DNA of 64,000 nt, taken from IMG/VR virus record IMGVR_UViG_3300044844_000854, positions 40,575-104,574 of that record; one strand, given 5' to 3'. Below the pieces are notes generated by a model that saw only the letters and a list, made by a program, of their open reading frames with translations, had not been told where the DNA came from and did no database searches. The DNA is from a virus. Below are positions 262-63,810 of this stretch, piece after piece; position 1 is the stretch's first letter; each line of letters opens with the position of its first letter. The translations under genes were made by a program, and so were the position numbers.

Positions 262-351
262 TGTATAAAAAACGGAATGTATAAAAAAAGGAATATAAAA
301 TCTCTTTAGTATGATATATTATGAAAACAAAAATACTAAGGAGAATAAACA

Positions 352-966
352 ATGGCAGACAATTTAGGTAGTAAGAATAGTTGGTTTAAAACTACACTCG
401 AAAAAGGTAGTATAGAAGTATATGATCCTTCACAAAGACAGATTAGAGATGAGATTGGGTTTCAATTTATCCCTAGAGATGTTGTGGTAAAATACAATCC
501 AAACTATGAATTTTTATCTGCACCACAAGGTTTAAGGAATTTTGCTCAATTTGGTAGCACTAAACCAAGAGTAATTTCATTTGAACTTATGTATATTGGA
601 TCTACTCAAGATAATGATCTTAAAGAGATAGATACTATACAAAAAAAATTAAAATCTTTAGTTACACCTACAAGCATAGATAATACTAAATTAAAAACAG
701 ATATTGTTACTTTCCAAAACATAAGATTAGCACCACCACTTGTTAGATTAAAAATGGGTAATCTTGTTCAGGACACTACAGATAAATTGCCTATTGGTGT
801 AATCTCTTCTCTTACAATTAAGGGATTAAGTGTATCACCTAATGGACTTAAACTAAATCGCTTTAGTGCTGATATAGAATTTACAGAAAGCACAACAGAT
901 TATGGTTTAAACTTTGAAAATCAAGTCATATACCAAGAAATGAAGGCTAAAGGAATAATAAAATGA
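352..966 (+). CDS. Contractile tail tube-initiator / CIS tube-like baseplate protein
   Basis: FQFIP...QFGSTKPRVISFEL...APPLVRLKMG...GVISSLTIK...ADIEFTE pattern typical of CIS-tube/gpU-like proteins; AAGGAG RBS; synteny. Confidence 0.65.
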   Translation: MADNLGSKNSWFKTTLEKGSIEVYDPSQRQIRDEIGFQFIPRDVVVKYNPNYEFLSAPQGLRNFAQFGSTKPRVISFELMYIGSTQDNDLKEIDTIQKKLKSLVTPTSIDNTKLKTDIVTFQNIRLAPPLVRLKMGNLVQDTTDKLPIGVISSLTIKGLSVSPNGLKLNRFSADIEFTESTTDYGLNFENQVIYQEMKAKGIIK

Positions 967-1268
967 GATATGATACTTCTAGAATTAACTATACGAATTA
1001 TGATCTTGATGATAGTAGTAAGAACACTATTGATGTAGTAATACCTACTAGATATACTAATCCCTTTTTTAACTATTCCGTTTTTTCTATGGGATTATAC
1101 ACTACTCAATTTAGCGATACTTACCAATCTATTGCACAGAAACTTTACAATAATCAATTGTCTTGGCATACCATTGCAGATTTAAATCCTGAGTATGATG
1201 CACTTGAATATTGTGATGGATTACCTGATAACATTACAATTAAGGTGATCATTACAGAAAGCAAATAA
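963..1268 (+). CDS. LysM / tail-X-like baseplate protein
   Basis: DTYQSIAQKLYNNQLSWHTIADLNP is a LysM/gpX-like motif; overlaps the upstream stop (ATGA). Confidence 0.75.
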   Translation: MRYDTSRINYTNYDLDDSSKNTIDVVIPTRYTNPFFNYSVFSMGLYTTQFSDTYQSIAQKLYNNQLSWHTIADLNPEYDALEYCDGLPDNITIKVIITESK

Positions 1269-1293
1269 CATAGAAAAAAACGGACATTAAAAA

Positions 1294-2922
1294 ATGGGAA
1301 CAATAAAAAAAACACAAAAACTACCTAACCTACCAATAGATGCTAAATCAATCTACTCTATCGACTTAATGACAGAGTATATTCCATATTTCTTAGTATA
1401 TGTAAAACATACAGAAGATACAGAATATAGACCTATTGGTGATAAATTAATGGCAAGACTCACTGATTTAGAAATACAACTTACAGATAGGAAATCACCT
1501 CTTATAGAGATCACAATTGCACTTGAGAGTATGTTTATTTCTAGCAATGTCTTTGCTTATGACTCACAAGCACTTATAGGAACTTATTATAACTTAGACA
1601 ATGCACCCAAATCAAATAAAGCTTTACCTATTACAGATGATTTACTAAGAGATGAATTTGTTAGCTCTATTGATGGTATCACTAAATTCTTTGATTTAGG
1701 TAAAAAGGTAAAACTTGATTATGGATACAATGGATTTTACTCTACAATAGAGAACTATGATATTACTGACTTTAAACTACAGTTAAAGAATGGTGGTGTT
1801 GTTGCTACAATCATTGCTCAAAAATTGGGAAGAAGAAAAGACATCATATATCCTGCAATCGTATATACTAAAGGCACTGTTATAGATATTCTTAGAGATT
1901 TGGTATATCGCACAGGTATTGAACTTGATCCAAATATTATAGAAGATACACAAAAAGAACTTAAAGCATTAGAAAGTCAAATCTATGACGAAGAATTATC
2001 TTTAGATTTTCTTATCCAACAAGAAAGTGAACTTTACACTCAATACATAAATGAACTAGCTAAATCACCTATTAGTAGTAGCGATATTGAGGCTCAAATA
2101 CCTACATCAAATGTAGATGATATAAATGGTAGAGATATAGTTAAGGTAGATGCAACTGTATTTATCTTACTTTCCGATAAATTCTTAGAGATTATCCAAT
2201 TAAGAAAAGATATTCTCACACAAAGAGAAACAATTGCAGAGATTAAAGCTACTGCTAAAAACACATCTGCATTCTCAGATACATTTAAACTTTATGAATA
2301 TACAAGTGATGAACCATTTGTTGTAGAAAGTGCAACAATAAGAAAAACACTTTTGGATTTACTTAAAACACTAAACATTACACTAGAAGGCTCTCAGGAT
2401 AAACTATCACTAACAAGAGAGAATGACTATAAACTATCTTATGGTAAGCCTAATAGTGAAATTAAATCCATCACATTTAAAACAGAAGATTTACAAGAAA
2501 AAGCTAGATATTCAGGCAAACCTATAATTACTAGAAATACTGTAAATCAAGGTACTGAAAAGATAAATTTAAATACATCTACAAGCCCAGCAGGTACTCA
2601 AAAGATAGATTTAAATCCATTGCCTACTATCTCACAAAGAGGTGCTACTGCAAAAACAAGAAGTTCATATGAACAAGCTAAGATCAATCGTAATGCAAGA
2701 AATGTTTTGACTGCAAGTGTTGAAATGCTTACAGGTTATCCTGCATTTTACCCTTTAGATAAAATTGAACTTGATTTAGGTAATTCATTTTACTCAGGTG
2801 TTTATGTTATAGATCATGTGATACATGAATTTTCTGATAGTGGATTTAAGACAAAAATGGAATTAAACAAAGAAGCATCTAAAAAACTTAAACCTAAAGC
2901 TAAAGAAGGCACTCTTAGATAA
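1294..2922 (+). CDS. Baseplate hub protein (P2 gpD / T4 gp27-like)
   Basis: C-terminal GYPAFYPLDKIELDLGNSFYSGVYVIDHVIHEFSDSGFKTKMEL is characteristic of gpD-like hubs; lies between LysM and spike genes. Confidence 0.75.
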   Translation: MGTIKKTQKLPNLPIDAKSIYSIDLMTEYIPYFLVYVKHTEDTEYRPIGDKLMARLTDLEIQLTDRKSPLIEITIALESMFISSNVFAYDSQALIGTYYNLDNAPKSNKALPITDDLLRDEFVSSIDGITKFFDLGKKVKLDYGYNGFYSTIENYDITDFKLQLKNGGVVATIIAQKLGRRKDIIYPAIVYTKGTVIDILRDLVYRTGIELDPNIIEDTQKELKALESQIYDEELSLDFLIQQESELYTQYINELAKSPISSSDIEAQIPTSNVDDINGRDIVKVDATVFILLSDKFLEIIQLRKDILTQRETIAEIKATAKNTSAFSDTFKLYEYTSDEPFVVESATIRKTLLDLLKTLNITLEGSQDKLSLTRENDYKLSYGKPNSEIKSITFKTEDLQEKARYSGKPIITRNTVNQGTEKINLNTSTSPAGTQKIDLNPLPTISQRGATAKTRSSYEQAKINRNARNVLTASVEMLTGYPAFYPLDKIELDLGNSFYSGVYVIDHVIHEFSDSGFKTKMELNKEASKKLKPKAKEGTLR

Positions 2923-2931
2923 GGAATAGTC

Positions 2932-4347
2932 ATGGCAAGATTTACTAAAGGTTTAATGACCTACAAACAAGAAGAATATGAAACAAAACAATATGGTATA
3001 TTTGCAGGTGTTGTTAAAGATACAAATGATCCCCTTAAATTTGGTAGAGTAAAGGTATTTTGCCCATCTATCTATGCAGATCAACTTTCGCCCTGGTGTA
3101 CACCATGCTTTCCAGGTGGTATGGGTATGGAAAGTGGATTTGTAATTATACCAAGATTAGAAACTTATGTATGGGTAACATTTGAGGCAGGTGATGTATC
3201 TGCACCAATTTACTTAGGTGGATTTGCAGTAGAAACCCCTATAGGTAGAAATAGTGATAATTCAATTGTAGAGAATGATATTAAACACCAAGCAAATTCA
3301 TCACCATTACCTACACATTCACAAGCAATCCCACAGGGTAGTGATGTATCTAGTATTCATACAACAGGTGCTACATTGCCACCTTCATTCAATTCTAGCT
3401 ATGGTAGTAATATTGTATTTAAAACACCTAGTGGCAACATGATTGAATTAGATGATACAGATGGTTATGAACGAATATCACTAAAGCATAATACAGATAG
3501 CTTAATGGAAATTAGAAATGATGGCACAATCAATACTGTATCTACAGGTAACCAATACCAATATGTCGCAGGTGTGCTTAATCAAAAGATAGAAAAAGAT
3601 AAAATTGTAGACACCAATATGTCTTTATTTGAAACTGTTAATGGTAATGTTGTTAAGAATTACTTATCTAATTATTCACTAAATATAGGTGAAGATTTTT
3701 CACTTTCCGTTTTTTCAGGTGATGAGAATAAGGTTTGTAACTCACTTACTCATACTGTAAATGGTAGCTCTATCACATCTACATTAGGTGATCTTGAATT
3801 TTCTTCAGGCGGTAGCTTTAATCTTGCAGGTGCAAATAGCTTAAATCTATTCTCTATTGCAAATACTACAATCTTCTCTAGCAATTCACTAGATATTACA
3901 GGTTTAACTAAATCCATATCCATAAAGGGTAGCAATGGTGTTGCTGAATTAAATGCAAGTGATAGAACTAATCTTATATCCTATGGTGTAGAATGTATTG
4001 CTAATCCACAAACACTTACACAACAGGTATTTTTAGGTAATACTACTTTACCAAGTGCATCTCGTGTAGGTCCTACTACAATCCCTTTACTTAAAGAAGG
4101 TGTTGTTATGGGGACACAATTACAGATTATGCTTACTGCTGTTATTCAAGCTATCTCTACCTATGCTAAACTACTATCTGCAGGTGGGAATGCACCAGGT
4201 CTTGGATTACCTGATCCCACACTAGCAGCAGCAAATATTGCACTTACTGTAGCACTAGATACAATTACTGCATTATACTTGACACCTATACCACCAAGTG
4301 GTAATCCTTTATTTGCTAGTGATAGTGTATTTGTATCTAAGAAATAA
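2932..4347 (+). CDS. Baseplate central spike (gp5/VgrG/gpV OB-fold plus beta-helix)
   Basis: GVVKDTNDPLKFGRVKV, VWVTFEAGDVSAPIYLG and TPSGNMIELDDTDGYERI are Gp5-OB/spike signatures. Confidence 0.9.
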   Translation: MARFTKGLMTYKQEEYETKQYGIFAGVVKDTNDPLKFGRVKVFCPSIYADQLSPWCTPCFPGGMGMESGFVIIPRLETYVWVTFEAGDVSAPIYLGGFAVETPIGRNSDNSIVENDIKHQANSSPLPTHSQAIPQGSDVSSIHTTGATLPPSFNSSYGSNIVFKTPSGNMIELDDTDGYERISLKHNTDSLMEIRNDGTINTVSTGNQYQYVAGVLNQKIEKDKIVDTNMSLFETVNGNVVKNYLSNYSLNIGEDFSLSVFSGDENKVCNSLTHTVNGSSITSTLGDLEFSSGGSFNLAGANSLNLFSIANTTIFSSNSLDITGLTKSISIKGSNGVAELNASDRTNLISYGVECIANPQTLTQQVFLGNTTLPSASRVGPTTIPLLKEGVVMGTQLQIMLTAVIQAISTYAKLLSAGGNAPGLGLPDPTLAAANIALTVALDTITALYLTPIPPSGNPLFASDSVFVSKK

Positions 4348-4386
4348 CAATAACAATAACAATGATAAAAAACGGAATAGTAAAAA

Positions 4387-4581
4387 ATGACTAAACAAGA
4401 ACTAATCGACTTACTAAACCAAGCAGATAAAGATGCAATTGGATTTGATGTAGGTGCAGAAGGCGATAAGAAGATCAATGATAAAAACACTGCTTTAGCT
4501 GAAAACCTAATCAAATTTATGACAGAAAGCCTTGTGATAGATGTAGGTGGTATTACTTATCCTATAAAGGTGATACAATAA
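4387..4581 (+). CDS. Hypothetical protein (baseplate region)
   Basis: 64-aa ORF preceded by the CGG motif at start-associated spacing; coupled to the next gene. Confidence 0.55.
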   Translation: MTKQELIDLLNQADKDAIGFDVGAEGDKKINDKNTALAENLIKFMTESLVIDVGGITYPIKVIQ

Positions 4582-5045
4582 TGAATGAGAAATTCCCCTT
4601 TACTGAATATATGGATAACCCTTTAGAATATATAAACAATTTACCTAGAAACCAATCAAATGCACTACAAGATCAAATCAAAACACTTGTAGATGAAATT
4701 GAAACTAAAAACAAACCATTTTGGGAAGAACAAGGCATTACAGAAGAGCAAGCATTACAACCAATTCTTGAAAGAACACTTGCAATGACTGAAATGATTA
4801 AAGGCACTGATAAAGGTAAGGAACTGCTAAAAAACGGAGATGTAAAAAAACAATTAAATCAAACACTCTTAGATATGAAAAATATGATAAATCTAGTAGG
4901 ATATATTCAAAAGTCTAATGAAATATCAAACCTAAAGCAAACTATGACAGGTCTTGCTAATGAGGTTGAAAGGAGTAAACATGAAATCCTACAAAGATTA
5001 CCAATCCAACCAAACACCAATAGAAAAATCGGAACTACAAAATAG
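4581..5045 (+). CDS. Hypothetical helical protein
   Basis: 154-aa ORF with TAATG stop-start coupling. Confidence 0.55.
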   Translation: MNEKFPFTEYMDNPLEYINNLPRNQSNALQDQIKTLVDEIETKNKPFWEEQGITEEQALQPILERTLAMTEMIKGTDKGKELLKNGDVKKQLNQTLLDMKNMINLVGYIQKSNEISNLKQTMTGLANEVERSKHEILQRLPIQPNTNRKIGTTK

Positions 5046-6471
5046 TGTAAAAACGGAACAGATCAAAAAAGCCTTAGAAAACTCTTCTATTATTACAGGC
5101 ACACCATCTGTAAACTACACAAAGGAACAACCTTTAGGACAACAGGTATCTAATACATTATCCGACTATGCTAAAAACCAAATAGGGAAACAAATAGCAG
5201 ATGGATTTACTAGTGATGTATATAAAGATAGTGCATTTAATCAAAGCTATAATGGTGTAGAAGATTTTGCCAACAATTTTGGTAATAAACTAGGAATGTC
5301 TTGGCAAAAAACCTCACCATTTGACTTCTTAGGACTTACGGATAATTTACAAGATGCAATCGACCCTGTTAAAGGTGGTATTGACACTATTAAGGGTATT
5401 ATTGATCTTGTTGTAGCCGTTATTGATTTTGTAGCTAATCTCTTAATACTTACTGCAAATCTAGTGCAAGCTATTTTGACTGCATTCATTAAACTACTAG
5501 AAGCAGTTAGAGATTTACTTGTGAATACTAATATGTTTGTCTTAAATGCAAGTGAAAAAGCACTTACAGATAGAAGTGTTTATAATCAACTAATGGAAAA
5601 GGCTGTTCCTAGCTTAAAAACAAATCAAGATATTATACCTGATTTACTTACAAGCAGATACTTTACACCTAGCGAAACCATAAGAAGAATTTCCCTTAGC
5701 TATGATGATGAATTTGATAAAAATAGACCTATAGGTGTTACAGGTGGTGATATTCATTTGGTTGTTATGCCATATCTTTTAGCACCAAATATAGGTAACA
5801 TTATCCAACTCTATACACAATTCTTAGCATTACTAGATAAAAAAGCATTTAAAGATATACTTGATAGAATAAATAATATGGCAAATCCCGATTATGTAAA
5901 TAAATTAAAGGATAGACAATATCCCTACTACCTTTATAAAGATGGTCAAGGTCAATCACCTAATTGGACTAAAAAAGGATTAAGTGACATTACAGGTGTA
6001 GATGCTATTGTTAATTCACTAAACAAATTGATTGCTACACTAAAGGTTGCAAATAGTGCCGTAGAATTATTTAAACAAGCAGTACGACTATTCCAACAAA
6101 GAGTAAAACAAATTCAAGCAATTATAGATCGTATTCTTACTGCTATACAAGATTTAATTCAATTGACTACAATCCCTATAGGTGCTCTTACTATGTTTGG
6201 TACAGGTAGCATAGATACTGTTCAACAAGCATTCTTAGACTCACTAAATCACCCTACATCACCACTACAAGAAAAAGATGATGAAGGAAATTTACTAATA
6301 CAATCTCAAGCAAATGTATCTATGTTAGCTTATGTGATACACTTACAATTGGGTACAGGTAGTGCAATTGAATTTCTTAAAGCTCTATTCTCTGTTAGAG
6401 ATGCAGCAGTTAATGTATATTCAGGTGCTACAAATACTTCAAACATTCAAGTTAGCTACGATAATATATAA
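4981..6471 (+). CDS. Hypothetical virion/baseplate-region protein with amphipathic or hydrophobic helices
   Basis: Long ORF; start moved to ATG 4981, which follows AAGGAG; hydrophobic helix IIDLVVAVIDFVANLLILTANLVQAILTAF. Confidence 0.6.
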   Translation: MKSYKDYQSNQTPIEKSELQNSVKTEQIKKALENSSIITGTPSVNYTKEQPLGQQVSNTLSDYAKNQIGKQIADGFTSDVYKDSAFNQSYNGVEDFANNFGNKLGMSWQKTSPFDFLGLTDNLQDAIDPVKGGIDTIKGIIDLVVAVIDFVANLLILTANLVQAILTAFIKLLEAVRDLLVNTNMFVLNASEKALTDRSVYNQLMEKAVPSLKTNQDIIPDLLTSRYFTPSETIRRISLSYDDEFDKNRPIGVTGGDIHLVVMPYLLAPNIGNIIQLYTQFLALLDKKAFKDILDRINNMANPDYVNKLKDRQYPYYLYKDGQGQSPNWTKKGLSDITGVDAIVNSLNKLIATLKVANSAVELFKQAVRLFQQRVKQIQAIIDRILTAIQDLIQLTTIPIGALTMFGTGSIDTVQQAFLDSLNHPTSPLQEKDDEGNLLIQSQANVSMLAYVIHLQLGTGSAIEFLKALFSVRDAAVNVYSGATNTSNIQVSYDNI

Positions 6472-6863: not shown

Positions 6864-6912
6864 TAAATATATGATGTATAGTGAAAAAACGGAAAATAAC
6901 AAAGGATAAAAC

Positions 6913-8811
6913 ATGAGAACACTAAAGACAAAATCACTAGGTAACTTACCAATACAACTAGAGCCTACATCTAAAGAATTTCTATCCATTAGACAATCTA
7001 TGCTAGATACGATTGATCAAATTGCACCTGAATGGACGGATAGATATGCAGGTGATTTAGGTATTGTGCTTGTAGAACTTATGGCATATATGGGGGATAT
7101 TCTTTCATATAACATAGATAAAGCACAAAATGAAAGCTACCTTGCTACTGCTCAAGAACGAAAAAATATCATCAAACTTTTAGAACTAATTGGCTATAAT
7201 TTAAAATCAGGTAGTCCTGCACAAGTACCTATGGCAATCATTACTACTCAAGACCTTGTTACTATCCCTAAAGGTACTATTGTAGAGAGTAATGTAGGTG
7301 GTTATAGGTTTGAGTCACTTGAAAACATTGTGCTACAGGAGGCTGGTGTATATTGCCAAGCTGAATATGCAAGCCAATTATCACTTGCTTTAGGTGTAGA
7401 AGTAAATGCAATTAACAATGCTATTTTCTCTAGTGGTATTACTAAAACTGCATTACTTGGTAAATCAAATGGAAAAGCTAATCAAACTTTTATCCTTAGC
7501 GATATTGGTATTGTTATTGGTAGTAATAGCGACTTATCATTACAAATCAATGGTGCTACATGGACTGCACAAGAGTCATTTCTTGACACCGAGTCGGATA
7601 GTTTGGTTTATACTTATCGACTAAATGATGATGATACGGTTACAATTACATTTGGTAATGATTTAAATGGGGCAATTCCTGCAATTAACCAAAATATCAA
7701 CATTACTTATCGTGCAGGTGTTGGGCAAAAATACAATGCAATTGGTATAGGTGCAATTAGCAATCTAAAGAGTTCAATTCAAGGCATTGCTACAATTTAC
7801 AATGTTGCACAACCAAGTGGTGGTAGTGATAGTGAGTCAAATGATAGTGCTAAAAGAAATGGACCATTATCACTTAAAGCACTTGATAGGGCAATCACAC
7901 TACAAGACTTTGAAACATTAGCAATTAAAACACCAAATGCAGGTATCAAATCTGCTAGAGCTGTTGCAGGTGAAGGTGCTTATGATGTAGAAGTATATGT
8001 TGCTTGTGAAGGACAAAATCCAATCCCTAGTGGTAGGTGGTATCGTGATTTCAACACAGGCACAGGTATAGTAGGTATGGTAGGTAGGTATCTTTTTGAT
8101 CGTAAGCCTATCCCTACACGATTACTTGTAGCACCTTGTAGAGCGGTACAAATTAAACTAAATGCTAAGATTGGTGCATTATCTAACTACTTAAATGCAG
8201 AAGTAAAACTAAATGTGCTAAACTCTATTAGAACTGAATTGCTTAGATTATCTGATAGCTTTGGTAGATCATTGCCATTATCAAGGGTAATTCAAATCAT
8301 TGAAAATAGTAGAGGTGTGGATTATTGTGATATTATTACACTACATAGGAAACCTGTGCTTGTATTTAAGAATGGTAGCAATCAAAATGCAATTGATTTA
8401 GCTACACTTGATTTTGACTATGCATCTATCAGTGAAACTACTGTAGAAGATACTTATTATATAGAGTGGCAATCTACATTATCCTTTTTTATCAAGTCCG
8501 AAAAAAACGGGTATATCAAAAATGATAATACTAAGCTATTTGTAATGAATACACAGAGTAAAACATTCACAATATACACTTTACCTATAGTAGATACAGA
8601 AGATACACCTGAGAGATATAAGCAATTTACATTTACTCTTACTTTAGGTAATTCACTACCTACACAAGATGATATTTGGGAATTAAAGGTATCTCGAAAG
8701 ATTGATACAATTACACTATCACCTAATGAGATCATTGTGCCTAGATTACTTGGTAACAATCTCTTACTTGATGAGAATGATATTAAAATCAATGTTGTTG
8801 GAGGTAAATGA
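6913..8811 (+). CDS. Baseplate J-like wedge protein (eCIS Afp11-like architecture)
   Basis: APEWTD..GDLGIVLVELMAYMGDILSY..D...NESYLATA; GKSNGKANQTF; ITFGNDLNGAIP; GGSDSES; RAITLQDFE. Confidence 0.92.
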   Translation: MRTLKTKSLGNLPIQLEPTSKEFLSIRQSMLDTIDQIAPEWTDRYAGDLGIVLVELMAYMGDILSYNIDKAQNESYLATAQERKNIIKLLELIGYNLKSGSPAQVPMAIITTQDLVTIPKGTIVESNVGGYRFESLENIVLQEAGVYCQAEYASQLSLALGVEVNAINNAIFSSGITKTALLGKSNGKANQTFILSDIGIVIGSNSDLSLQINGATWTAQESFLDTESDSLVYTYRLNDDDTVTITFGNDLNGAIPAINQNINITYRAGVGQKYNAIGIGAISNLKSSIQGIATIYNVAQPSGGSDSESNDSAKRNGPLSLKALDRAITLQDFETLAIKTPNAGIKSARAVAGEGAYDVEVYVACEGQNPIPSGRWYRDFNTGTGIVGMVGRYLFDRKPIPTRLLVAPCRAVQIKLNAKIGALSNYLNAEVKLNVLNSIRTELLRLSDSFGRSLPLSRVIQIIENSRGVDYCDIITLHRKPVLVFKNGSNQNAIDLATLDFDYASISETTVEDTYYIEWQSTLSFFIKSEKNGYIKNDNTKLFVMNTQSKTFTIYTLPIVDTEDTPERYKQFTFTLTLGNSLPTQDDIWELKVSRKIDTITLSPNEIIVPRLLGNNLLLDENDIKINVVGGK

Positions 8812-10343
8812 TGAGAAAAATCTTACAAGGTTGGCAATTCTCTAAGGTAAGAACTACTGAAATTGCAGATATTGTAGAAATAGGCAATCAAATCCCCCTA
8901 CTAATCGAAGAAACTAATCTTCCTTTAGGTACAACTATTCATAGGGTAGTAGTAAGACAATCAATCATAAATGTAGGTGGTCAAATATCTTATGTACTTT
9001 CTAAAGCAATTGAAGATAGTCCACAAATCACTACTGATTGTTTAATTGTTAAGGTTGGTATCCCTTTAGATACAGCTCAATTCACATTTACAGGTGATAT
9101 TGCTATCCTATCTTCTGAAATTGAATACCCTAGAGCATATGATTTAAATAGATATAAGCTAGAATTTGAAGGATATGTAAATTCATACTCTACATATCGA
9201 GATGAATATATCACACAAATCATTTTACCTAGCACAAGTGGTATTGTTAAATATATAACACTACTTTATAAGGTAAATTTGGTAGGTGTACAAAGTGATC
9301 CATTCTATATCTACTCTCAAGTAAATTGCCTTAATAGTGGTGTTGCAAATAAACTCTACAATCCTTTAGAAAGTAAATTAGGTTTAAAGCTATTCAATCG
9401 CTTACCTGCATACCTTAAAAAAGAAGATGAAAAAAACGGAAATGCAACAAAAAAACTACTTAATATATTAGGTAGAACACTTGATGATGTAGAAACTAAA
9501 GTAAATCAAATCAAAAATACATATGATGTAGATAATGTAAATGCAGATAAAATACCATACATAGATAATCTTTTAGGTTGGGAAACAAATTTTGAACTAA
9601 ATGAACAGATTAGAAGATTTGAAACAAAAACTGCTATAGATGTATATAAGACTAAATCAACAACTAGAAGTATTGAACTTATCCTACAAGAGATACTTGG
9701 TTGGAATGTAGAAATTCAAGAGGGCTACCCTTATGTCTTTAGCTTAAATCAAAAACCTTATGAATTACTAGCTAAGCCTGATGATTGGAATGATACTACA
9801 GATGGTGATTGGGATCAATTGTTAGCAAACTCACCTTTATCTGTTACATATAATACAGATATGGGTATTGTTGATATAGGCTCTACATTCTCACCTATTG
9901 CAATCTTACCATCATTTTCAGATAAAAAAGATAACACAAGCAACAATTTTCAAAATCTAAATGGTGTACTTATTAAGCTATACCCACTACCTAATCGTAG
10001 GGTAAAATTAGGAAGAGATTTACTAGATAAGCTAAATGTATTACTACCACAACTATTGGTACATTATGCAGACTATTTTATCTCTGTTCAAGATGTATTT
10101 GATGAAACTATTAGACTTGGTATTGCTGATGACTATGATGATTTCTTAGGTTATGTCAATGGTGAAACACTTGGGCTCAAATCTAAGAGTGGTACAAAAA
10201 CACCATCACTTGTATTGTTTGAAACTTGGGGTGAAGATCGTGATTATGATAGCTTACTAAATGATGATTTTTATAGGCTATTCCATAATGCTATGGGTAT
10301 TGCAGGTAGCAATGTGGACGGTGGTTATACACCAAACGAATAA
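8808..10343 (+). CDS. Baseplate/tail protein containing a P2 gpI-like domain
   Basis: LFNRLPAYL...D, IPYIDNLLGWE, AIDVYKTKST match Tail_P2_I-type proteins; follows baseplate J. Confidence 0.75.
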   Translation: MMRKILQGWQFSKVRTTEIADIVEIGNQIPLLIEETNLPLGTTIHRVVVRQSIINVGGQISYVLSKAIEDSPQITTDCLIVKVGIPLDTAQFTFTGDIAILSSEIEYPRAYDLNRYKLEFEGYVNSYSTYRDEYITQIILPSTSGIVKYITLLYKVNLVGVQSDPFYIYSQVNCLNSGVANKLYNPLESKLGLKLFNRLPAYLKKEDEKNGNATKKLLNILGRTLDDVETKVNQIKNTYDVDNVNADKIPYIDNLLGWETNFELNEQIRRFETKTAIDVYKTKSTTRSIELILQEILGWNVEIQEGYPYVFSLNQKPYELLAKPDDWNDTTDGDWDQLLANSPLSVTYNTDMGIVDIGSTFSPIAILPSFSDKKDNTSNNFQNLNGVLIKLYPLPNRRVKLGRDLLDKLNVLLPQLLVHYADYFISVQDVFDETIRLGIADDYDDFLGYVNGETLGLKSKSGTKTPSLVLFETWGEDRDYDSLLNDDFYRLFHNAMGIAGSNVDGGYTPNE

Positions 10344-10455
10344 CATTAAAATAGAATGATGAAAAAAAACGGAACATAAAAAAAAGATTATGCTATACAC
10401 TACACCTTAGATATTATATAAAGAGATACAAAGACATACACTAAAGGAATACAAT

Positions 10456-11010
10456 ATGAACAAAATTGCCTTAACAATTGTGGGTAAATACCAAGACACC
10501 TTGATTGATAAAAACGGAAATGTAAAAAAACATGAGATCAAAAACAATCAAGTACAACTAACTGCTCTAAAGCTAATATCTTCACTATTTAAAAACCAAG
10601 CAAATACAATTGGTATTCAATACATTGCTTTAGGTAGTGGAGATGCTACTTGGGATTTACTAACAAATAACAAACCTAGCCCAATGCTTAATAGCAACAC
10701 TACACTTACAACAGAGATATTTAGAAAAGCTATCCCTATTACAGATATTGTATTTGTAGACCCTACGGCTGCTTTTGGTCAAGGTGCAATTTCTCAAACT
10801 GCCACTACAAGATTAAGAATTACTACTCAAATTGAAGCTAGTGAAGCTAATGATTCTCTTAGAGAATTTGCTCTTTTTGGTGGTACTGCAACAGGTATGC
10901 AAAATAGTGGATTTATGATCAATTGGGTAGCACACCCCTTGATTGAAAAGACAGAAGATGTTGTTCTTAATCGTATGATTGAACTAGACTTTGTTCTAGT
11001 AAATAACTAA
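10456..11010 (+). CDS. Tail fibre attachment / collar protein
   Basis: IQYIALGSGD...TLTTEIFRK...EANDSLREFALFGG pattern of tail-collar/fibre N-terminal domains. Confidence 0.7.
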   Translation: MNKIALTIVGKYQDTLIDKNGNVKKHEIKNNQVQLTALKLISSLFKNQANTIGIQYIALGSGDATWDLLTNNKPSPMLNSNTTLTTEIFRKAIPITDIVFVDPTAAFGQGAISQTATTRLRITTQIEASEANDSLREFALFGGTATGMQNSGFMINWVAHPLIEKTEDVVLNRMIELDFVLVNN

Positions 11011-11060
11011 ACTAAACACACACTCTTAGAAAAAAACGGAAATTACAAAAAGGAAATAAT

Positions 11061-17159: not shown

Positions 17160-17248
17160 TAAATAAGCTAAAATAAGAATATTGATTGAATTTCTTTTAG
17201 ATAAGGTATAATATCTCTGTATCACATTAAAAAACGGAGATAGAAAAA

Positions 17249-17623: not shown

Positions 17624-17653
17624 TAGATAGCATAAAAAAACGGAGATTACAAA

Positions 17654-18250: not shown

Positions 18251-18274
18251 GCATAAAAAACGGAGAATAACAAA

Positions 18275-18785: not shown

Positions 18786-18787
18786 AA

Positions 18788-19467: not shown

Positions 19468-19500
19468 AAGACAAACCCTTAAAAAAACGGAGCTTATAAA

Positions 19501-25510: not shown

Positions 25511-25512
25511 AA

Positions 25513-47107: not shown

Positions 47108-47158
47108 AAAACGGAACATTAAAAAACCAAACAGATAAGACACTACAAAGGAAACACT

Positions 47159-47662: not shown

Positions 47663-47698
47663 ACCAACCATAACACAAGAAAAACGGAACAAACAAAA

Positions 47699-47986: not shown

Positions 47987-48029
47987 TAACTACTCACTAC
48001 TCACTCACTAAAAAAACGGACATTTAAAA

Positions 48030-48089
48030 ATGGCTAAAACACAAATGCCTACTAAAGATAAAGGCACAACCAAACCAAAGAAATGCTAA
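48030..48089 (+). CDS. Possible 19-aa basic micro-protein
   Basis: MAKTQMPTKDKGTTKPKKC*; ATG is 13 nt from the CGG of a motif copy, the same spacing as for real genes. Confidence 0.35.
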   Translation: MAKTQMPTKDKGTTKPKKC

Positions 48090-48143
48090 ACACTAATCTA
48101 TACACTCTTTAGATATAGATAAGAAAAAACGGAAGATACAAAA

Positions 48144-49984: not shown

Positions 49985-51019
49985 ATGCGAGAACTCACTT
50001 TTGAAGAAGAAACAGCAATCACTTTACTAGAAACTGCTGTAAGACTAAAACCCAAAGCAACTGCACTCAAAAACGGAGCAGAAAAACTTTTGTCATTTTT
50101 AAACTCTAACAGATCAGAACGACCAAAACTGACTGAAAAGAATATTGAAGAACTTGACAATGTGTTAGCTAAACATGGTATCAACTTGGCAGTATTGTTA
50201 AAGACACAACCTACTACACAAGCTAAACAGACACCTATCGTAAATCCTGCAATGGAAGCATATAAACAAGCATTTGCGATTGCAACACCTATTGTTAGTG
50301 ATAGTAGTGTTGAACAACCAAAGGCAACTGTTACTGTGCTAAATAGCCAAATCGAAACAATTAAGAGTAAATTGTTAAAGTTAAGACTACAATTCAAACT
50401 TGATGATAAAGCAAACAAAAACAAGAATGAATGGCTTGATACCTTTTCTAGTGATTGTTTAGATCGTATTGCAAAATATGGTGATCGCACAAAATTTACA
50501 GATAAGCAGATTGATGTGATCAACAAATATGTACAAGATGATGATAACAATCTTAGCTACACACCACAGACAAACTACACACTTGCAGATGTTAGTGGTA
50601 ATAAGCTAAGAGAACTTATCCTACATACTCGTGATGTAATGGGCAAATATGCTATTGTAGGTGATACAATTCAGCACAACTACTCTATGTTATGGAATAC
50701 ACAAAGTGCTACAATCAACAAGCTACTTACACTTGAACTTACAGATGCACAAATTGTTTGGATTGTAGACTTTATGATCAAACTACAAGAAAATAGTCGT
50801 ATTGTTGCTAAGGATCACAAAGAAGATGATCGTAGAAAAAACTATTTCAAATGTGTAGAACTACTTAAAAAACTTGTAGATGGTTTAGCTACCAAACAAG
50901 ACTTACTTACTAAAGAAGATCGTGTGTTTTTACAAAGCTATGTTAAAAATACTTGGTCAAATGAGCCAATCCAAGAAGTAATCAACAGAACTGTTGAAAC
51001 ACAAAGAGAAAGACAATAA
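49985..51019 (+). CDS. Hypothetical helical protein with repeated (L/F)T(D/E)xQ motifs
   Basis: 344-aa ORF. Confidence 0.6.
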   Translation: MRELTFEEETAITLLETAVRLKPKATALKNGAEKLLSFLNSNRSERPKLTEKNIEELDNVLAKHGINLAVLLKTQPTTQAKQTPIVNPAMEAYKQAFAIATPIVSDSSVEQPKATVTVLNSQIETIKSKLLKLRLQFKLDDKANKNKNEWLDTFSSDCLDRIAKYGDRTKFTDKQIDVINKYVQDDDNNLSYTPQTNYTLADVSGNKLRELILHTRDVMGKYAIVGDTIQHNYSMLWNTQSATINKLLTLELTDAQIVWIVDFMIKLQENSRIVAKDHKEDDRRKNYFKCVELLKKLVDGLATKQDLLTKEDRVFLQSYVKNTWSNEPIQEVINRTVETQRERQ

Positions 51020-51439: not shown

Positions 51440-51527
51440 GATCATACTAAACTAGACTAAAAAAAACGGAATTTAAAAAAAAGGCAATAGGTAAAAAAAT
51501 ACGAACATATTTATATATGTTTAGATA

Positions 51528-52885: not shown

Positions 52886-53038
52886 GATAATCTATCAAAC
52901 TTAAACATAACAACAACAAAAAAACGGGAATTTAAAAAATACCTTAGATATATACTAACAACACTTAGATCGTTATACTCTATACCATATCAATCATTGA
53001 TATATTTTTTCTATTCCGTTTTTCTCAAGGAAACACAG

Positions 53039-53680
53039 ATGACACAACAACAATACTCAAGACCTAGAGTTGAACTTACACCAAAGGTACTTGATAGATT
53101 AAACATCGGTAAACGATATTGGCAATCGTCCTTAGATACCTTGCCTAAAGAAAGCAAACACTATTCAATCACTAAAGAATATGTTAAGGAATTTGCACTT
53201 AAATATGAGCCTAAAGGTATTGGCTTGTTTCTATGGGGTAACAATTCCACAGGTAAAACATGGACTGCTACTGCTATCCTTAAAGAACTTGCTCATATTG
53301 GCTACACTGCATACACTATCTTAGGTGATGAACTTCGAGCAATTTATATAAACAATCAGATGTTCGATCCTGATAACTCTATCATTAGATGGGTAGAGAA
53401 TGTCGAAATCCTTTTGATTGAAGATATTGGTAAAGAGTATAATGCTAGTGGCAGTGGTTGGGCAGAACTATGCTTTGAAAACCTGCTTAGAAAGCGATCA
53501 CGAAATCTAAAGGTAACTATCATTACTACAAATTTGTCACCAGATGAATTTAAAGATAGGTACAAAAACTCTGCTATGGCTATCTTACTAGAGTCAATGA
53601 TAGCTATACAAGTGAAATCAACTGACAATCGTGCTAAAATCCAAGCAGAGATACAAAAAACAATCGTTAATCCTAGCTAA
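53039..53680 (+). CDS. DnaC/IstB-like AAA+ helicase loader
   Basis: GLFLWGNNSTGKT, LLIEDIGKE, TIITTNL. Confidence 0.88.
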   Translation: MTQQQYSRPRVELTPKVLDRLNIGKRYWQSSLDTLPKESKHYSITKEYVKEFALKYEPKGIGLFLWGNNSTGKTWTATAILKELAHIGYTAYTILGDELRAIYINNQMFDPDNSIIRWVENVEILLIEDIGKEYNASGSGWAELCFENLLRKRSRNLKVTIITTNLSPDEFKDRYKNSAMAILLESMIAIQVKSTDNRAKIQAEIQKTIVNPS

Positions 53681-53709
53681 AAAAACGGAACATATAAAAA
53701 GGCATAGTA

Positions 53710-55557: not shown

Positions 55558-55650
55558 TCTAAGCTATTGATTGATTTTACTTAGATACTTATACTATATA
55601 TAATTTCTTTTCTATCACTTATTCTTACTGAAAAAACGGAACAGTAAAAG

Positions 55651-56664: not shown

Positions 56665-56817
56665 ATTTATTGCATGATCATTGATAAAAAAACGGAATTT
56701 TAAAAAAATCCTTAGCACTATACACTCTACACTAAGAATGTTATTATATATCTATCATAAATTGATACACTTTCTTTTTATGATACCAACAACCAAAGAC
56801 ACACAAGGACATATAAG

Positions 56818-57907: not shown

Positions 57908-57990
57908 CTCTTCATGTTGATATTATAGTGTCTGTATGCTATTAAACTATAAGATACAAAACGGAATATATAAAAACAATAGAGAACACA

Positions 57991-58482: not shown

Positions 58483-58552
58483 AAAAATCTTTACATATCA
58501 AGTATGGTATGATAAAGTGTAAATCCCCCAACCACACAAGGAAAAAAACGGA

Positions 58553-59014
58553 ATGTATAAAACCCTTGAAGAACAGAAACAAGCAATCACTAAATTACTA
58601 TTAAATCCTGATAGTAATCTATATGATGCAATTGCTTTAGATATTAAACTAGCACTAGAGCCAATGCACATTTCTTTAGTATATCATACACTATCACTAT
58701 TACCTGATGATCAAGCATTTGATGAGTTAAAGATTATGCTTAGAGCGATTTGTTTAAACCATATTGCCCTTTTAACTAGAGATCAAATTTTGGTAAATGT
58801 TATGCCTAAAGCAGCATATGTAGTTATCAAGTATGCATACTCTTTCTTAGATCAAAAATCTCAAGAAGTATACAACAACATTCTTACACAACTTACAGAT
58901 CCAAGCTATGATGAATTTAAGGCATATTTCTTAGAACAAAAACCTATGCCCCCACACATTGCTTTAGATACACTTAAACAAGCACTACCAACCTTTTCTG
59001 AAGGAGAAGAATAA
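58553..59014 (+). CDS. Hypothetical protein
   Basis: AAGGA RBS. Confidence 0.55.
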   Translation: MYKTLEEQKQAITKLLLNPDSNLYDAIALDIKLALEPMHISLVYHTLSLLPDDQAFDELKIMLRAICLNHIALLTRDQILVNVMPKAAYVVIKYAYSFLDQKSQEVYNNILTQLTDPSYDEFKAYFLEQKPMPPHIALDTLKQALPTFSEGEE

Positions 59015-59286: not shown

Positions 59287-59436
59287 TAGCTGGCAAAATT
59301 AACACTACACTACCAAAATTGCCAAGTGTGGTAATAACTATTTGAAATATATAAAGAAAATACACCACTAAAAAAACGGAATTGACAAAAACCTTATCTT
59401 AGATACCATATAAAAAACCAATGATAAGGAAACAAA

Positions 59437-60678: not shown

Positions 60679-60755
60679 ACACCAAAAAAACGGGATTGTA
60701 AAAAAGAAAAAATGATATATACTCTCTAGATACAATTAACAAAGAGAGAGAAATA

Positions 60756-62087: not shown

Positions 62088-62152
62088 GTAAATGTCTTAA
62101 ATGACAATGACAAAAACCAACAACAACCACAGAAAAAACGGAGCTTTAAAAA

Positions 62153-62491
62153 ATGTCTTTAGACCTTAGCTTTGAATTTGATGCAACTCTACAAGAACTA
62201 GAGAATGCAGGTGTACCACATAACATTCGCTTATATAGAACTTATGCTGGTGCAAAACGATTACACACTATCGTACAAGAACTCTCAAACGGTACAATCT
62301 CTCTCTATCAGGATTTGGATAATCGCCATATTGATCAATTGGTATTCTGCTATAGATTAGCTAGAAATGTATTTGACAATGGTCACTTGGTGGATATGAT
62401 CGAAAACGATACACAATATCGAGATTTTTTTGATACATTGGTTGTAGTCAAAGAAAAAGAAATTAAAACTACCATTCGCCCCTTCTTTTAA
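62153..62491 (+). CDS. Hypothetical protein
   Basis: Motif-associated start. Confidence 0.55.
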   Translation: MSLDLSFEFDATLQELENAGVPHNIRLYRTYAGAKRLHTIVQELSNGTISLYQDLDNRHIDQLVFCYRLARNVFDNGHLVDMIENDTQYRDFFDTLVVVKEKEIKTTIRPFF

Positions 62492-62502
62492 AGGAAAAAC
62501 AA

Positions 62503-63018
62503 ATGACAGACTTCTCAATTACAAGAGATCAAGATGAAATTTGGTTTGGTGTCTTACAACAAAAATTTGGACACATCTCAGAAAATCTCATCAATGACAT
62601 CAAAATGGCACTACAAGCAAAGCAGAAATTCGGTGCGATTGCAAAATCACAAAAGCAAGCATTGTTCATTCAATTGTCTTTAGAAAAATTAAGGGCAGAT
62701 TATATGCAATGTGTAAATGCTAGAAAAGAAGGTGACAATGATGATAAAGAGTTATCTACAAGCATGTTCACTACTACAACATTTATGATGGCACAGGTAT
62801 GTGATATGTATGTAGGCACAAACATTCTACCACGAGCAGAATTACCATTTGATTATGTAGGCATCGCTGATATGTTCATTGATAACCTATGCGAAGATTA
62901 TGATCGTTTGGTTGTGGAATTAAACAATCACACTATGAGTGAATTTGGTGCACCTTTAGATGAAATCAAACAAACAATCAATATGGTTAAAGAAATCCTA
63001 AAGCAAAAACCACAATGA
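62503..63018 (+). CDS. Hypothetical protein
   Basis: AAGGA RBS. Confidence 0.55.
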   Translation: MTDFSITRDQDEIWFGVLQQKFGHISENLINDIKMALQAKQKFGAIAKSQKQALFIQLSLEKLRADYMQCVNARKEGDNDDKELSTSMFTTTTFMMAQVCDMYVGTNILPRAELPFDYVGIADMFIDNLCEDYDRLVVELNNHTMSEFGAPLDEIKQTINMVKEILKQKPQ

Positions 63019-63157
63019 TCACTTTATAAAATTCAAATTTAAGTTACAGGTTGCAAACAAAGACCTTGCATATTGATATATAATATAGCTAAATATATTG
63101 ACAAATTTAGTCAAACTTGATACGATAATAGAGCAACCAACAACAAGCAAGGTATAA

Positions 63158-63424
63158 ATGAAATACTTTTTAAACAAAAAAACAACCGTACAGGTGTATG
63201 AATTAAATGGCTCTTGGGATGCTAAGACATTTGATGCAAACTATGAATTTAATCCTGAGAGATATATGCTTATCAAATCACCTGAGCAACATATTGAATT
63301 ATACTTTGGTGTAATCAACAATTGGCTAACAGTAGACGACAATTCTTATGGATTTGCTGAATATGAAACAGGCTTACATATCTTAGTAAATTACCATGAT
63401 ATAGATGCATTCATTGTTCAATAA
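63158..63424 (+). CDS. Hypothetical protein
   Basis: TTGACA-17-TACGAT promoter at 63098-63126; AAGG RBS. Confidence 0.55.
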   Translation: MKYFLNKKTTVQVYELNGSWDAKTFDANYEFNPERYMLIKSPEQHIELYFGVINNWLTVDDNSYGFAEYETGLHILVNYHDIDAFIVQ

Positions 63425-63441
63425 AAAACGGGGATTAAAAA

Positions 63442-63810
63442 ATGCTACTTGGAAAACAACTACTAGAAGATTACACCAATTATAAAGAGAGAACTAAACC
63501 TAAAGACTTAGAGTCATATAAATTAGGTTGTTTTGAAACTTCCGTTTTTTTGACACTTGGTCATAGAATACCACAAGTACCTTTAGCAATTAAAAACACT
63601 TTAGATGTGCTTGATTACTCTATGGTAGAAAGCCAATACTTTACTTGTTTAAGACAAGCAGTTAAAGCAGCACTCTTTGACATCATCATTAGGAAAGATT
63701 TCAAATCACTTACTGAGCAACAACTCATTGAGCTACTACAAAAAACGGGTATGGATAAACTTGATTATGTACCTGTTATTGATATGTTAAAAAAGCACCA
63801 ATCACAATAA
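63442..63810 (+). CDS. Hypothetical protein
   Basis: Motif-associated start. Confidence 0.55.
   Translation: MLLGKQLLEDYTNYKERTKPKDLESYKLGCFETSVFLTLGHRIPQVPLAIKNTLDVLDYSMVESQYFTCLRQAVKAALFDIIIRKDFKSLTEQQLIELLQKTGMDKLDYVPVIDMLKKHQSQ

Follow-up and report, generated by a model that had tools for sequence, protein, structure and literature searches.

A strand-polarised A6CGGA motif at gene boundaries throughout the genome of a freshwater phage lineage

The 64,000-nucleotide stretch of viral DNA analysed here (hereafter the window; bases 40575-104574 of the IMG/VR record IMGVR_UViG_3300044844_000854, which is 104,574 bp long and rated complete by CheckV) carries a short bipartite motif, A6CGGA followed at a small distance by a second run of A, which recurs along the genome at a density of about one copy per 1.27 kb. 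The motif is best explained as a cis-element of one phage lineage that is co-oriented with transcription and punctuates gene boundaries, and 25-28 of its copies provide the following gene with its ribosome-binding site. More tentatively, with a probability of about 0.4, we read it as a transcript element resembling the start-associated sequences (SAS) of mycobacteriophages, which a hypothetical dedicated, sequence-specific factor would recognize. Positions called 'genome' below (contig L009) are those of the whole 104,574-bp record and all others are those of the window. Genes were taken from simple ATG-initiated open reading frame (ORF) calls, two starts having been corrected by hand.

An initial annotation of the window had noticed about 63 copies, 58 on the + strand and 5 inverted, and counting bears this out. 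The string AAAAACGGR occurs 56 times in the window (51 on the + and 5 on the - strand) against 0.40 +/- 0.64 times, and at most 3, in 100 dinucleotide shuffles. Relaxing the core to A4CGG[AG] gives 60 copies between positions 267 and 63749 (55 + and 5 -), and 82 + and 6 - copies in the whole genome. When aligned, the copies give the consensus A6-7 C G G R (A in 87%) A N W T (70%) N A4-7, with a G in 22% of copies at the position of the T. The first A run is 6-7 long in 66 of 82 copies, and the gap between CGG and the second A run measures 5-8 nt (mode 6) and is filled by spacers that are almost all distinct in sequence; no conservation is visible beyond the motif, neither upstream of the first A run nor downstream. 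Subfamilies sharing more than the core do exist (...TTAAAAAACCAAAC three times, GGAGAATAACAAATGGCAA at two genes). Two copies at genome 7693/7708 (L009:7688-7720) are arranged head to tail, 15 nt apart, with the second A run of one serving as the first A run of the next, and TGG variants (A4-7TGGR) lie 15-16 nt apart at genome 12079/12095/12110 (L009:12079-12125), upstream of queD, which suggests a repeat unit of ~15 nt in head-to-tail arrays. Apparent 'joints' with 20-nt sides in DNA contigs turned out to be alignments between motif copies, not rearrangements.

The genome has a GC content of 32%, and CG dinucleotides are depleted about 3.5-fold in the window (472 versus ~1660 expected). CGG and CCG are scarce outside the motif, as had been noted by eye: of the 107 CGG on the + strand of the window, 63 are part of the motif (AAACGG), and CCG occurs 48 times. 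The arginine codons are likewise distributed as described, AGA (735), CGT (146) and CGA (135) being the most used, followed by AGG (111), CGC (36) and CGG (8). A depletion of CG is seen in a relative as well (observed/expected 0.39-0.42), the more distant relatives identified through the large terminase (TerL) having ratios of 0.6-1.2. The motif count clearly exceeds a codon-preserving null, since shuffling synonymous codons in all ORFs yielded 3.7-3.9 +/- 2 intragenic copies (maximum 9-10 in 200-300 trials) versus the 30 observed, and the enrichment also outlasts the removal of start-proximal copies, after which 54-57 of the 82 + copies are left. Antisense intragenic copies number 4, versus 0.57 under the null. 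Since intragenic and antisense copies both exceed expectation, selection acts on the DNA word.

The distribution of copies follows that of genes. About 110 of the 119 called ORFs are on the + strand, and intergenic DNA, which makes up 13% of the genome (80 gaps of at least 15 nt), holds 54 of the 82 + copies, so that the earlier statement that most intergenic gaps carry a copy is roughly right. In the start-linked copies (20 of them in the window), the ATG opens a real ORF and lies at a fixed distance from CGG, either 10 nt (9 copies) or 11 nt (16 copies). In gaps of at least 80 nt, 11 copies lie near the start, 13 lie 4-40 nt after the upstream stop and 10 are near neither; the copies hugging a stop are then followed by a sigma-70-like promoter and a separate Shine-Dalgarno (SD) sequence. 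Around 10 copies precede a start by 20-45 nt and are separated from it by a canonical AAGGA or TAGGAG, and at least 9 follow strong sigma-70-like sites at a distance of 30-70 nt, hence within 5′ untranslated regions. One of the six inverted copies is found 20 nt upstream of a minus-strand ORF (genome 16473-16862), and a copy at genome 13495 precedes a 5-codon mini-ORF whose length is conserved in two relatives (L113 and L107). Given that polarity follows the genes and that copies are coupled to starts, the element belongs to gene expression.

The ribosome-binding function of the start-linked copies can be read from several features. Genes without the motif have a canonical TAAGGAG-type SD sequence 5-9 nt before the ATG, indicating that the host ribosome uses SD pairing. 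In start-linked copies GGR is situated 9-10 nt ahead of the ATG and the second A run fills the spacer. The extended form CGGAG is present in 15 of 28 start-linked but in 1 of 54 other copies (Fisher p = 5e-8), and genome-wide GGAG accounts for 35% of GGAN near starts versus 3.9% elsewhere. The 10-11 nt coupling to the ATG, together with the start-specific GGAG, implies selection on the transcript. Five consecutive genes (17249, 17654, 18275, 18788 and 19501) each have a copy of their own. Closely related genomes exchange the motif for ordinary SD sequences at the same genes: the gene at 40043 is preceded by ...AAAAACATTAGGAGTAGCCAA-ATG (TAGGAG) here and by ...AAAAAACGGAGTGTCAA-ATG (AAAAAACGGAG) in the 96%-identical strain L237, the gene at genome 15742 has the motif here and GAGGATTACAAAA-ATG (GAGGA) in the 80%-identical relative L113, and the copy at 33802 has lost its C in L237, leaving an ordinary AAGGA. 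In L237 (13200-13560), two extra copies are present relative to window 39882-40043, one after the helicase stop and the other as the ribosome-binding site of the 40043 gene. The complement CTCC is nearly missing from the + strand of the whole genome, with 2 copies versus 60 of GGAG.

We infer, nevertheless, that SD pairing is not the whole story, because the invariant A6C pairs worse than TAAGGAG does and because two thirds of the copies have no start codon. When pairing was scored against the canonical CCUCC implied by the phage's TAAGGAG sites, which may not be the host's 16S sequence, the invariant C falls opposite the U of the anti-SD, where the phage's canonical sites have A or T. Both A6 and the second A run are retained even in copies without any usable start. 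Position weights are equal in start-less and start-linked copies through position 18, including the T and the end of the A run, so that the copies represent one element rather than a ribosome-binding site plus look-alikes. In start-less copies the A run stops most often 12 nt after CGG, frequently followed by CC. RNA folding predicts the motif to be unpaired with a probability of 0.69, versus 0.47 at random sites; an RNA hairpin was rejected, the motif being unpaired like other A-rich stretches.

Of the 30 copies inside ORFs, about 22 remain when those serving an overlapping downstream start are set aside. The intragenic copies read K-T-E/D (17) or K-N-G (12), and only 1 uses a CGG codon, so that all reading frames are represented. 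Rare codons are used to write them: of 2036 threonine codons 48 are ACG, and one third of these ACG codons occur within AAA-ACG-GA. The copy in the ribonucleotide reductase (RNR) gene, reading K-T-D-M-E-K, aligns without gaps to K-Q-D-Q-E-K of the Lactobacillus enzyme (PDB 1l1l), and therefore arose through substitutions, one amino-acid change among them, rather than through an insertion. An origin of intragenic copies from a mobile mini-insertion was accordingly rejected for this copy, there being no indel relative to 1l1l. A -1 frameshift heptamer (A_AAA_AAC) was also discarded, as it would fit just the 12 K-N-G copies and no intergenic ones.

These observations bear on one explanation, namely that the motif is a ribosome-binding site and nothing else, spread as a cassette, with A-rich look-alikes homogenized by short-patch recombination and non-start copies arising as by-products. 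The subfamilies, the turnover of copies between strains and the phage's own RecA-like gene (41640) would all agree with this. However, the full position weights are found in the 54-57 non-start copies, a length of 22 nt is short for homologous conversion, and the RNR copy needed an amino-acid replacement in a conserved segment. In addition, orthologous non-start copies have been kept in a relative despite diverged flanks. We regard this as the least probable of the explanations weighed here.

Conservation was assessed in relatives at increasing distance. The only moderately diverged relative found is JACCEC013214019.1, a 104-kb contig of 80-87% identity whose TerL is 85-89% identical. It contains 20 + and 3 - copies in the 21.7 kb read, and orthologous sites, including some away from starts, have retained their copies although the flanks have diverged. 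TerL relatives at 48-68% identity and PolA relatives at up to 35% identity have neither the motif nor an analogous word upstream of their ORFs. A scan of IMG/VR for the motif plus ATG found several copies only in near-identical strains, the other matches being single chance copies, and in sampled bacterial genomes the bipartite word occurs as single scattered copies, none of them multi-copy among the matches listed. Being kept in a relative and missing from distant ones, the motif is a lineage-specific signal under selection as a nucleotide word. The view that it corresponds to no catalogued motif stands: Rfam at gathering thresholds gave no match on the window, and a literature search for the motif string returned nothing relevant.

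How the element might act can be pictured as follows. A putative factor would recognize the motif on the single-stranded transcript and would thereby govern, across the genome, either translation or the fate of the mRNA. In tight intergenic spaces the element would be positioned for its own GGA to serve as SD sequence. The whole could be related to the start-associated sequences of Cluster K mycobacteriophages, but much expanded. The unpaired state of the motif RNA and the flexibility of the 5-8 nt internal gap suit single-strand recognition. Several points weigh on the other side. The factor is hypothetical; intragenic and after-stop copies have no obvious translational role; a purely sense-RNA function leaves the antisense intragenic copies, which are above the null, unexplained; three gains or losses among ~18 sites at 2-5% divergence show that single copies are dispensable; and the same geometry would fit a -10-like element with a transcript starting at the ATG. 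Searches for phage S21 and S1-domain proteins, which could retune ribosomes, gave no matches.

A bolder version, which we hold as a tentative possibility, is that the motif serves as an address label for a phage-encoded global regulator of a kind not described before, which would read A6CGG on transcripts or on the non-template strand of transcribing complexes. Such a regulator would tell phage from host messages and set their translation, stability or read-through, and the label would be written even into coding sequence at the cost of rare codons and amino-acid changes. Candidate regulators are the SpoVS/Alba-like protein, the two-helix-turn-helix (HTH) MerR-type protein or an uncharacterized phage protein. 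The identities proposed earlier for the MerR-HTH (40567), ParB-like (43318) and SpoVS (47699) proteins were confirmed by Pfam and PHROGs, but binding of the ParB type is disfavoured because the site is not palindromic and ParA was not found. The MerR-type gene is itself preceded by a CGGAG copy of the motif. A single-sequence AlphaFold model of its product reached a predicted local distance difference test score (pLDDT) of 45 and was unusable.

The resemblance to a -10 element leads to another explanation, that the motif is a phage-specific promoter used by the host RNA polymerase together with an unrecognized phage factor. Positions 6-11 (G A R N W T) would constitute a minimal -10, A6CG would replace the -35, and transcription would start at the end of the second A run, so that start-linked genes would be leaderless or nearly so, while other copies would give leaders with their own SD sequence or serve as internal promoters. 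In sigma-70 promoters, the canonical open-complex geometry has A at -11 and T at -7, and an ATG 11 nt after CGG puts the A (87%) at -11, the T (70%) at -7 and the A of the ATG at +1; start-less copies end their A run at the same place. High information, a single orientation, preference for intergenic DNA, some internal and antisense copies and lineage specificity are phage-promoter traits, and in the tail module (genome 31.4-62.7 kb) motif copies are frequent although no strong sigma-70-like intergenic site is present. On the other hand, ATGs at 10 nt, and at 8 nt in the L237 copy, break this geometry, T occupies -7 in only 70% of copies and G in 22%, and nothing resembling a -35 is conserved upstream of the A run. 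Copies at five adjacent genes are what one would expect of ribosome-binding sites and rarely of promoters, the start-specific G of GGAG has no promoter rationale, and at least 9 copies lie 30-70 nt past good sigma-70-like sites. Searches of the genome for sigma-70 regions 2/4 (PF04542, PF04545) and for PF00940 gave no match, the PF00940 search being weak because its control matched nowhere, and neither a T7-like polymerase nor a DFDxD motif was found, although divergent factors could escape such searches. On balance we consider a promoter unlikely. Two more specific forms were rejected: an UP element or fixed partner of sigma-70 promoters, since distances to promoter-like sites vary and lie on both sides, and an ECF-type GGAAC -35 or a sigma-54 site, since the following base varies and no conservation is seen 16-17 nt downstream.

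Rather less likely still, the motif could be a double-stranded DNA site for a phage protein bound as a monomer or head to tail, acting as a stoperator-like roadblock or as a loading site for an elongation factor, which would stop, pause or re-equip RNA polymerase according to orientation; the overlap with ribosome-binding sites would then reflect economy of space. Like the stoperators of L5-type phages (PMC9283540), the copies are asymmetric, located in short gaps at stops and starts, and co-oriented with transcription. After-stop copies precede the next promoter, intragenic and antisense copies both exceed the null, head-to-tail pairs with 15-16 nt spacing exist, and the two HTH-like segments of the 232-aa MerR-type protein are what a monomer would need on an asymmetric site. 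However, a variable gap of 5-8 nt is awkward for rigid DNA recognition, a period of 15-16 bp sets neighbours on opposite faces of the helix, and the sharp coupling to the ATG and the start-specific GGAG bespeak selection on the transcript. Searches for integrase, serine recombinase/resolvase and ParA families gave no matches in the genome, so that lysogenic silencing is not evident.

The position between cistrons and after stops, the sense polarity and the unpaired state of the motif RNA would also be compatible with a signal for mRNA processing or stability, in which an A-rich single-stranded site is cut or protected by a ribonuclease or ribosome of host or phage origin. Such a signal would separate cistrons or act as a ribosome-binding decoy shielding transcripts, for which the STAB-SD sequence of the Bacillus thuringiensis cry3A mRNA is a precedent, and a weak SD is indeed present even where no start follows. 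Against this, intragenic copies obtained through rare codons and amino-acid changes would be costly cleavage sites, the invariant A6C is superfluous for ribosome binding, and no ribonuclease was recognized among the proteins scanned. This explanation appears improbable.

A function of the DNA unrelated to expression is, in our judgement, very improbable. The motif could then be a polar signal similar to Chi or KOPS, mark the DNA for packaging or ejection, be nicked site-specifically, or be modified by the DpdA-type 7-deazaguanine machinery. A density of ~1 per 1.27 kb in one orientation resembles polar chromosomal words, CGG is retained in a CG-depleted genome, the word is selected in coding DNA, and the phage does encode a FolE-QueC-QueD-QueE-DpdA-like set together with glycosyl- and methyltransferases; the ORF at 27222 matches a queuine tRNA-ribosyltransferase (DpdA-type) PHROG. 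Yet the spacing of copies is irregular (coefficient of variation 0.77, with as much as 5 kb between neighbours), copies are concentrated in intergenic gaps and at a fixed distance from ATGs, their orientation is identical on either side of the putative origin repeats (genome 10.5 kb), an inverted copy accompanies a minus-strand gene, and the known contexts of deazaguanines in phages are short and dense, not 22-nt words. The initial annotation was thus right in seeing a genuine high-copy, strand-polarised site, but its packaging or ejection, segregation, Chi/KOPS and self-marking readings find no support, given that polarity tracks genes, that a third of the copies are ribosome-binding sites and that strains swap the motif for SD sequences; for polar or uptake words, the fixed ATG distance, the intergenic clustering and the occurrence in bacteria of only single chance copies, among the matches listed, speak against them as well. 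All copies in the window are compiled in Table 1.

Table 1. Motif copies, candidate binders and other recurrent features (window positions unless a contig is named)
Feature	Position	Strand
Intergenic copy, 11 nt past upstream stop, 76 nt ahead of next start	267..289	+
Inverted copy in + strand ORF	1065..1086	-
Start-linked copy, ATG 1294 (542 codons)	1274..1294	+
Inverted copy in + strand ORF	3696..3715	-
Start-linked copy, ATG 4387	4367..4387	+
CGGAG copy within 4582-4959, where gene calls are poor; lacks a start 10-11 nt on	4829..4850	+
Copy in ORF 4960-6471, reading K-T-E	5049..5070	+
Copy 20 nt upstream of ATG 6913, then separate AAGGA SD	6884..6896	+
Copy in ORF 6913-8811, reading K-N-G	8501..8522	+
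Copy in ORF 8808-10343, reading K-N-G	9430..9455	+
After-stop copy (26 nt), then promoter-like TTAGAT..TATAAA, own SD	10362..10385	+
Copy in ORF 10456-11010, reading K-N-G	10510..10530	+
Copy 21 nt upstream of ATG 11061, then separate AAGGA SD	11030..11051	+
Weak copy (A4) in 2032-codon ORF	12163..12180	+
Start-linked CGGAG copy, ATG 17249; first in five-gene series	17229..17249	+
Start-linked CGGAG copy, ATG 17654	17634..17654	+
Weak inverted copy (A4)	18192..18209	-
Start-linked CGGAG copy, ATG 18275	18255..18275	+
Start-linked copy, ATG 18788	18768..18788	+
Start-linked CGGAG copy, ATG 19501 (453-codon virion protein)	19481..19501	+
After-stop copy overlapping TAA, ...AAAAAACCAAAC subfamily; own TAGGAG SD 44 nt further	22534..22554	+
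Start-linked CGGG copy, ATG 23612	23592..23612	+
Copy in final codons of ORF 24000-24398, 15 nt upstream of ATG 24398	24374..24395	+
Copy in glycosyltransferase ORF 24398-25510, reading K-T-E	25004..25022	+
Start-linked copy, ATG 25513, overlapping end of upstream ORF	25493..25513	+
Start-linked copy, ATG 26442 (QueC)	26421..26440	+
Copy in QueC ORF, reading K-N-G	26939..26957	+
Copy 34 nt upstream of RNR start, ...AAAAAACCAAAC subfamily, separate SD	28907..28927	+
Copy in RNR ORF, reading K-T-D-M-E-K	29816..29834	+
After-stop copy (28 nt), next + start distant	30939..30961	+
After-stop copy (12 nt), next start distant	32615..32635	+
Start-linked copy, ATG 33821; C missing in strain L237 (AAAAAAAGGAAT)	33800..33821	+
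Copy in ThyX ORF; in-frame ATG 35157 11 nt on (42 codons)	35137..35157	+
CGGAGG copy 13 nt upstream of DNA polymerase GTG 36578; strong sigma-70-like site 34 nt upstream	36556..36576	+
Copy in helicase ORF, reading K-N-G	38600..38621	+
Copy in helicase ORF, reading K-T-E	38791..38808	+
Copy in helicase ORF, sole one using CGG codon	39476..39495	+
Start-linked CGGAG copy, ATG 40567 (MerR-HTH protein)	40546..40567	+
Weak copy (A4) near 5′ end of RecA ORF	41661..41679	+
Copy 22 nt before ATG 43318 (ParB-like), 37 nt past TTGACA-17-TATGAT; separate AAGGA SD	43286..43308	+
Copy in exonuclease ORF, reading K-T-E	46128..46147	+
After-stop copy overlapping TAA, ...AAAAAACCAAAC subfamily	47106..47126	+
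Start-linked copy, ATG 47699 (SpoVS)	47680..47699	+
Copy 10 nt ahead of 19-codon mini-ORF (ATG 48030; window 48030-48089; MAKTQMPTKDKGTTKPKKC)	48010..48030	+
Start-linked copy, ATG 48144 (radical SAM, QueE-like)	48124..48144	+
CGGAG copy within or at start of ORF 49985-51019; TTG 13 nt on	50069..50086	+
After-stop copy (27 nt), sigma-70-like site 61 nt downstream	51459..51482	+
After-stop copy (39 nt), then promoter-like box CCTTAGAT..TATACT	52918..52939	+
Inverted copy, same gap as 52918 copy; + strand T run after AT-rich hairpin	53005..53023	-
Copy 5 nt past stop, 21 nt ahead of ATG 53710	53679..53700	+
Start-linked copy, ATG 55651 (primase); 33 nt past sigma-70-like site	55631..55649	+
After-stop copy (28 nt), sigma-70-like site 26 nt downstream	56686..56708	+
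Weak copy (A4) 26 nt ahead of ATG 57991	57958..57976	+
Copy with called ATG 58553 inside CGGAATG; 31 nt past sigma-70-like site	58542..58562	+
Intergenic copy, 90 nt past stop	59370..59391	+
After-stop copy (12 nt)	60684..60705	+
Start-linked CGGAG copy, ATG 62153, closing a 372-nt gap	62133..62153	+
Start-linked CGGGG copy, ATG 63442	63423..63442	+
Inverted copy in ORF 63442-63810	63531..63551	-
Core-only copy in ORF 63442-63810, without second A run	63740..63749	+
Candidate binder: 232-aa MerR-type protein, HTH-like segments 39-83 and 127-172	40567..41265	+
Candidate binder: SpoVS family protein	47699..47986	+
Candidate binder, less likely: ParB-like N domain + HTH	43318..44280	+
L237 stretch lacking C of 33802 copy	L237:7650-7950 vs window 33795-33821	
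7-deazaguanine gene set	window 22981-28841, 48144-48848; L009:12455-12892	
C-rich boxes	L009:5485-5505, 7735-7760, 7790-7835, ~11230-11250; L113:3900-3925, 4480-4500	
Promoter spacer box CACT(T/A)AGA	window 49283-49311, 35331-35359, 36500-36528, 60076-60104, 61299-61327, others	

Judged by its gene content, the phage is contractile-tailed. Its structural and packaging genes include a large terminase, a portal, a 2826-codon MuF-type gene, a sheath and baseplate proteins, and its replication and nucleotide genes a family A DNA polymerase, helicases, a DnaB-like helicase, a primase, the RecA-like protein, ribonucleotide reductase and ThyX; no tRNA genes were found when looked for. Megablast of 20 kb against GenBank phages gave no match, and tblastn with TerL retrieved only relatives at 26-40%, such as Bacillus phage BCD7 and Streptomyces phages. 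The phage or close strains are present in DNA runs of about 12 freshwater, lake and estuary studies; the RNA runs were two estuary metatranscriptomes with contigs of 150-350 nt at low depth.

Other features of the genome were noted along the way. The 7-deazaguanine set comprises FolE, a HAD phosphatase, a GT-B glycosyltransferase, a SAM methyltransferase, QueC, a 539-aa DpdA-type protein, a QueE-like radical SAM protein and a QueD-type PTPS, and suggests that the virion DNA may contain a hypermodified guanine. A second glycosyltransferase (GT2) is encoded at 44284. L009:10284-12454 is an ORF-free stretch of 2.2 kb with opposed CTGTYG/ACAGC repeat arrays near 10.4-10.7 kb, and is likely a replication origin or regulatory hub. 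Early non-coding stretches of the phage and its relative contain recurrent C-rich boxes, GATACCCC(N)CC / AAAACCCCCC, often directly after motif copies. In many of the sigma-70-like promoters the spacer contains a conserved box, CACT(T/A)AGA, located 3-4 nt ahead of the -10 hexamer (TTGAYT-N-CACTTAGAAATGATATAAT is one such case); it is a second recurrent regulatory word and may be the site of another factor. Finally, a perfect AT-rich palindrome (ATATCAAT-C-ATTGATAT) at 53050-53075, followed by the T run of an inverted motif copy, may be a weak terminator or attenuator before the gene for an IstB-like ATPase.

The phage is widespread in lakes. Its motif supplies a quarter of the genes with their ribosome-binding site and has been imposed on coding sequence too; it thereby resembles the unexplained start-associated sequences of mycobacteriophages but is far more pervasive. 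Should a dedicated factor read the motif, phage messages would be controlled across the whole genome by a system both simple and portable, which would also provide a handle on how phages make their mRNAs distinguishable from those of the host. In practice, the motif can be used as a precise marker of true start codons and as a marker of the phage lineage in metagenomes, and the natural swaps between motif and SD sequence are ready-made experiments.

Compared with known systems, the motif shares with the canonical SD sequence a GGA/GGAG complementary to CCUCC, an A-rich spacer and the ATG, and swaps with TAGGAG or GAGGA at the same genes of sister genomes. It differs in its mismatching invariant C, in its spacing (9-10 nt versus 5-9), in having 10 invariant bases, far beyond what an SD needs, and in that most copies have no start; complementarity to the anti-SD 5-10 nt from a real start is found in the start-linked third only. 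Single-element phage promoters, such as the T4 late promoter (TATAAATA) and the 23-nt promoters of the T7 type, are likewise conserved, oriented, lineage-specific words located before or inside genes and have A/T-rich melting regions. Unlike them, the motif abuts the ATG and is often downstream of sigma-70-like promoters, and the searches revealed no polymerase or sigma factor to go with it.

The closest analogues are indeed those named by the initial annotation, stoperators and start-associated sequences. The stoperators of Cluster A mycobacteriophages, studied for L5 gp71 and the TipsytheTRex repressor, are asymmetric sites, more than 20 in number, which are bound by a monomer with two DNA-binding domains and halt elongation in one orientation only (PMC9283540). 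As with the motif, dozens of asymmetric sites are spread genome-wide over short intergenic spaces and promoters in an orientation linked to transcription, and the phage has a two-HTH candidate protein. However, stoperators serve the immunity repressor of temperate phages, whereas this phage shows no integrase, resolvase or ParA; there is no likeness in sequence, and stoperators neither lie at a fixed distance from ATGs nor act as SD sequences. With no repressor homologue recognized among the proteins scanned and no sign of lysogeny, the motif falls outside the definition of a stoperator.

The SAS of Cluster K mycobacteriophages, of which there are 11-19 per genome with the consensus GGGATAGGAGCCC, occur exclusively in the non-structural arm (Pope et al. 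2011, PMC3203893), and their function and binder were still unexplained in 2025 (PMC3203893; PMC12699233). Both elements are short, asymmetric, one-orientation repeats that lie at the position of the ribosome-binding site, in the case of the motif for 25-28 of the 82 + copies; they combine an SD core with strongly conserved positions unable to pair with 16S rRNA, and are specific to one phage lineage; as with SAS, the starts that the motif serves are mainly ATG. The sequences are nevertheless unrelated (GGGATAGGAGCCC versus A6CGGAA..A5), and the 82 + 6 copies of the motif are spread over all modules, tail and baseplate among them. The distance from the start is 3-7 nt for SAS and 9-10 nt for the GGR of the motif; nearly all SAS abut starts and few are in ORFs, whereas two thirds of the motif copies are start-less and ~22-30 are in ORFs; and the motif has no inverted-repeat partner of the ESAS kind. 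Furthermore, the low GC content and the TTGACA/TATAAT promoters suggest that the host is not an actinobacterium, unlike that of the SAS phages. Since sequence, copy number, spread over modules, start spacing and start-less copies all differ, the motif falls outside the SAS definition as well, and we file it as an oriented phage gene-boundary motif that is a member of neither the SAS nor the stoperator family.

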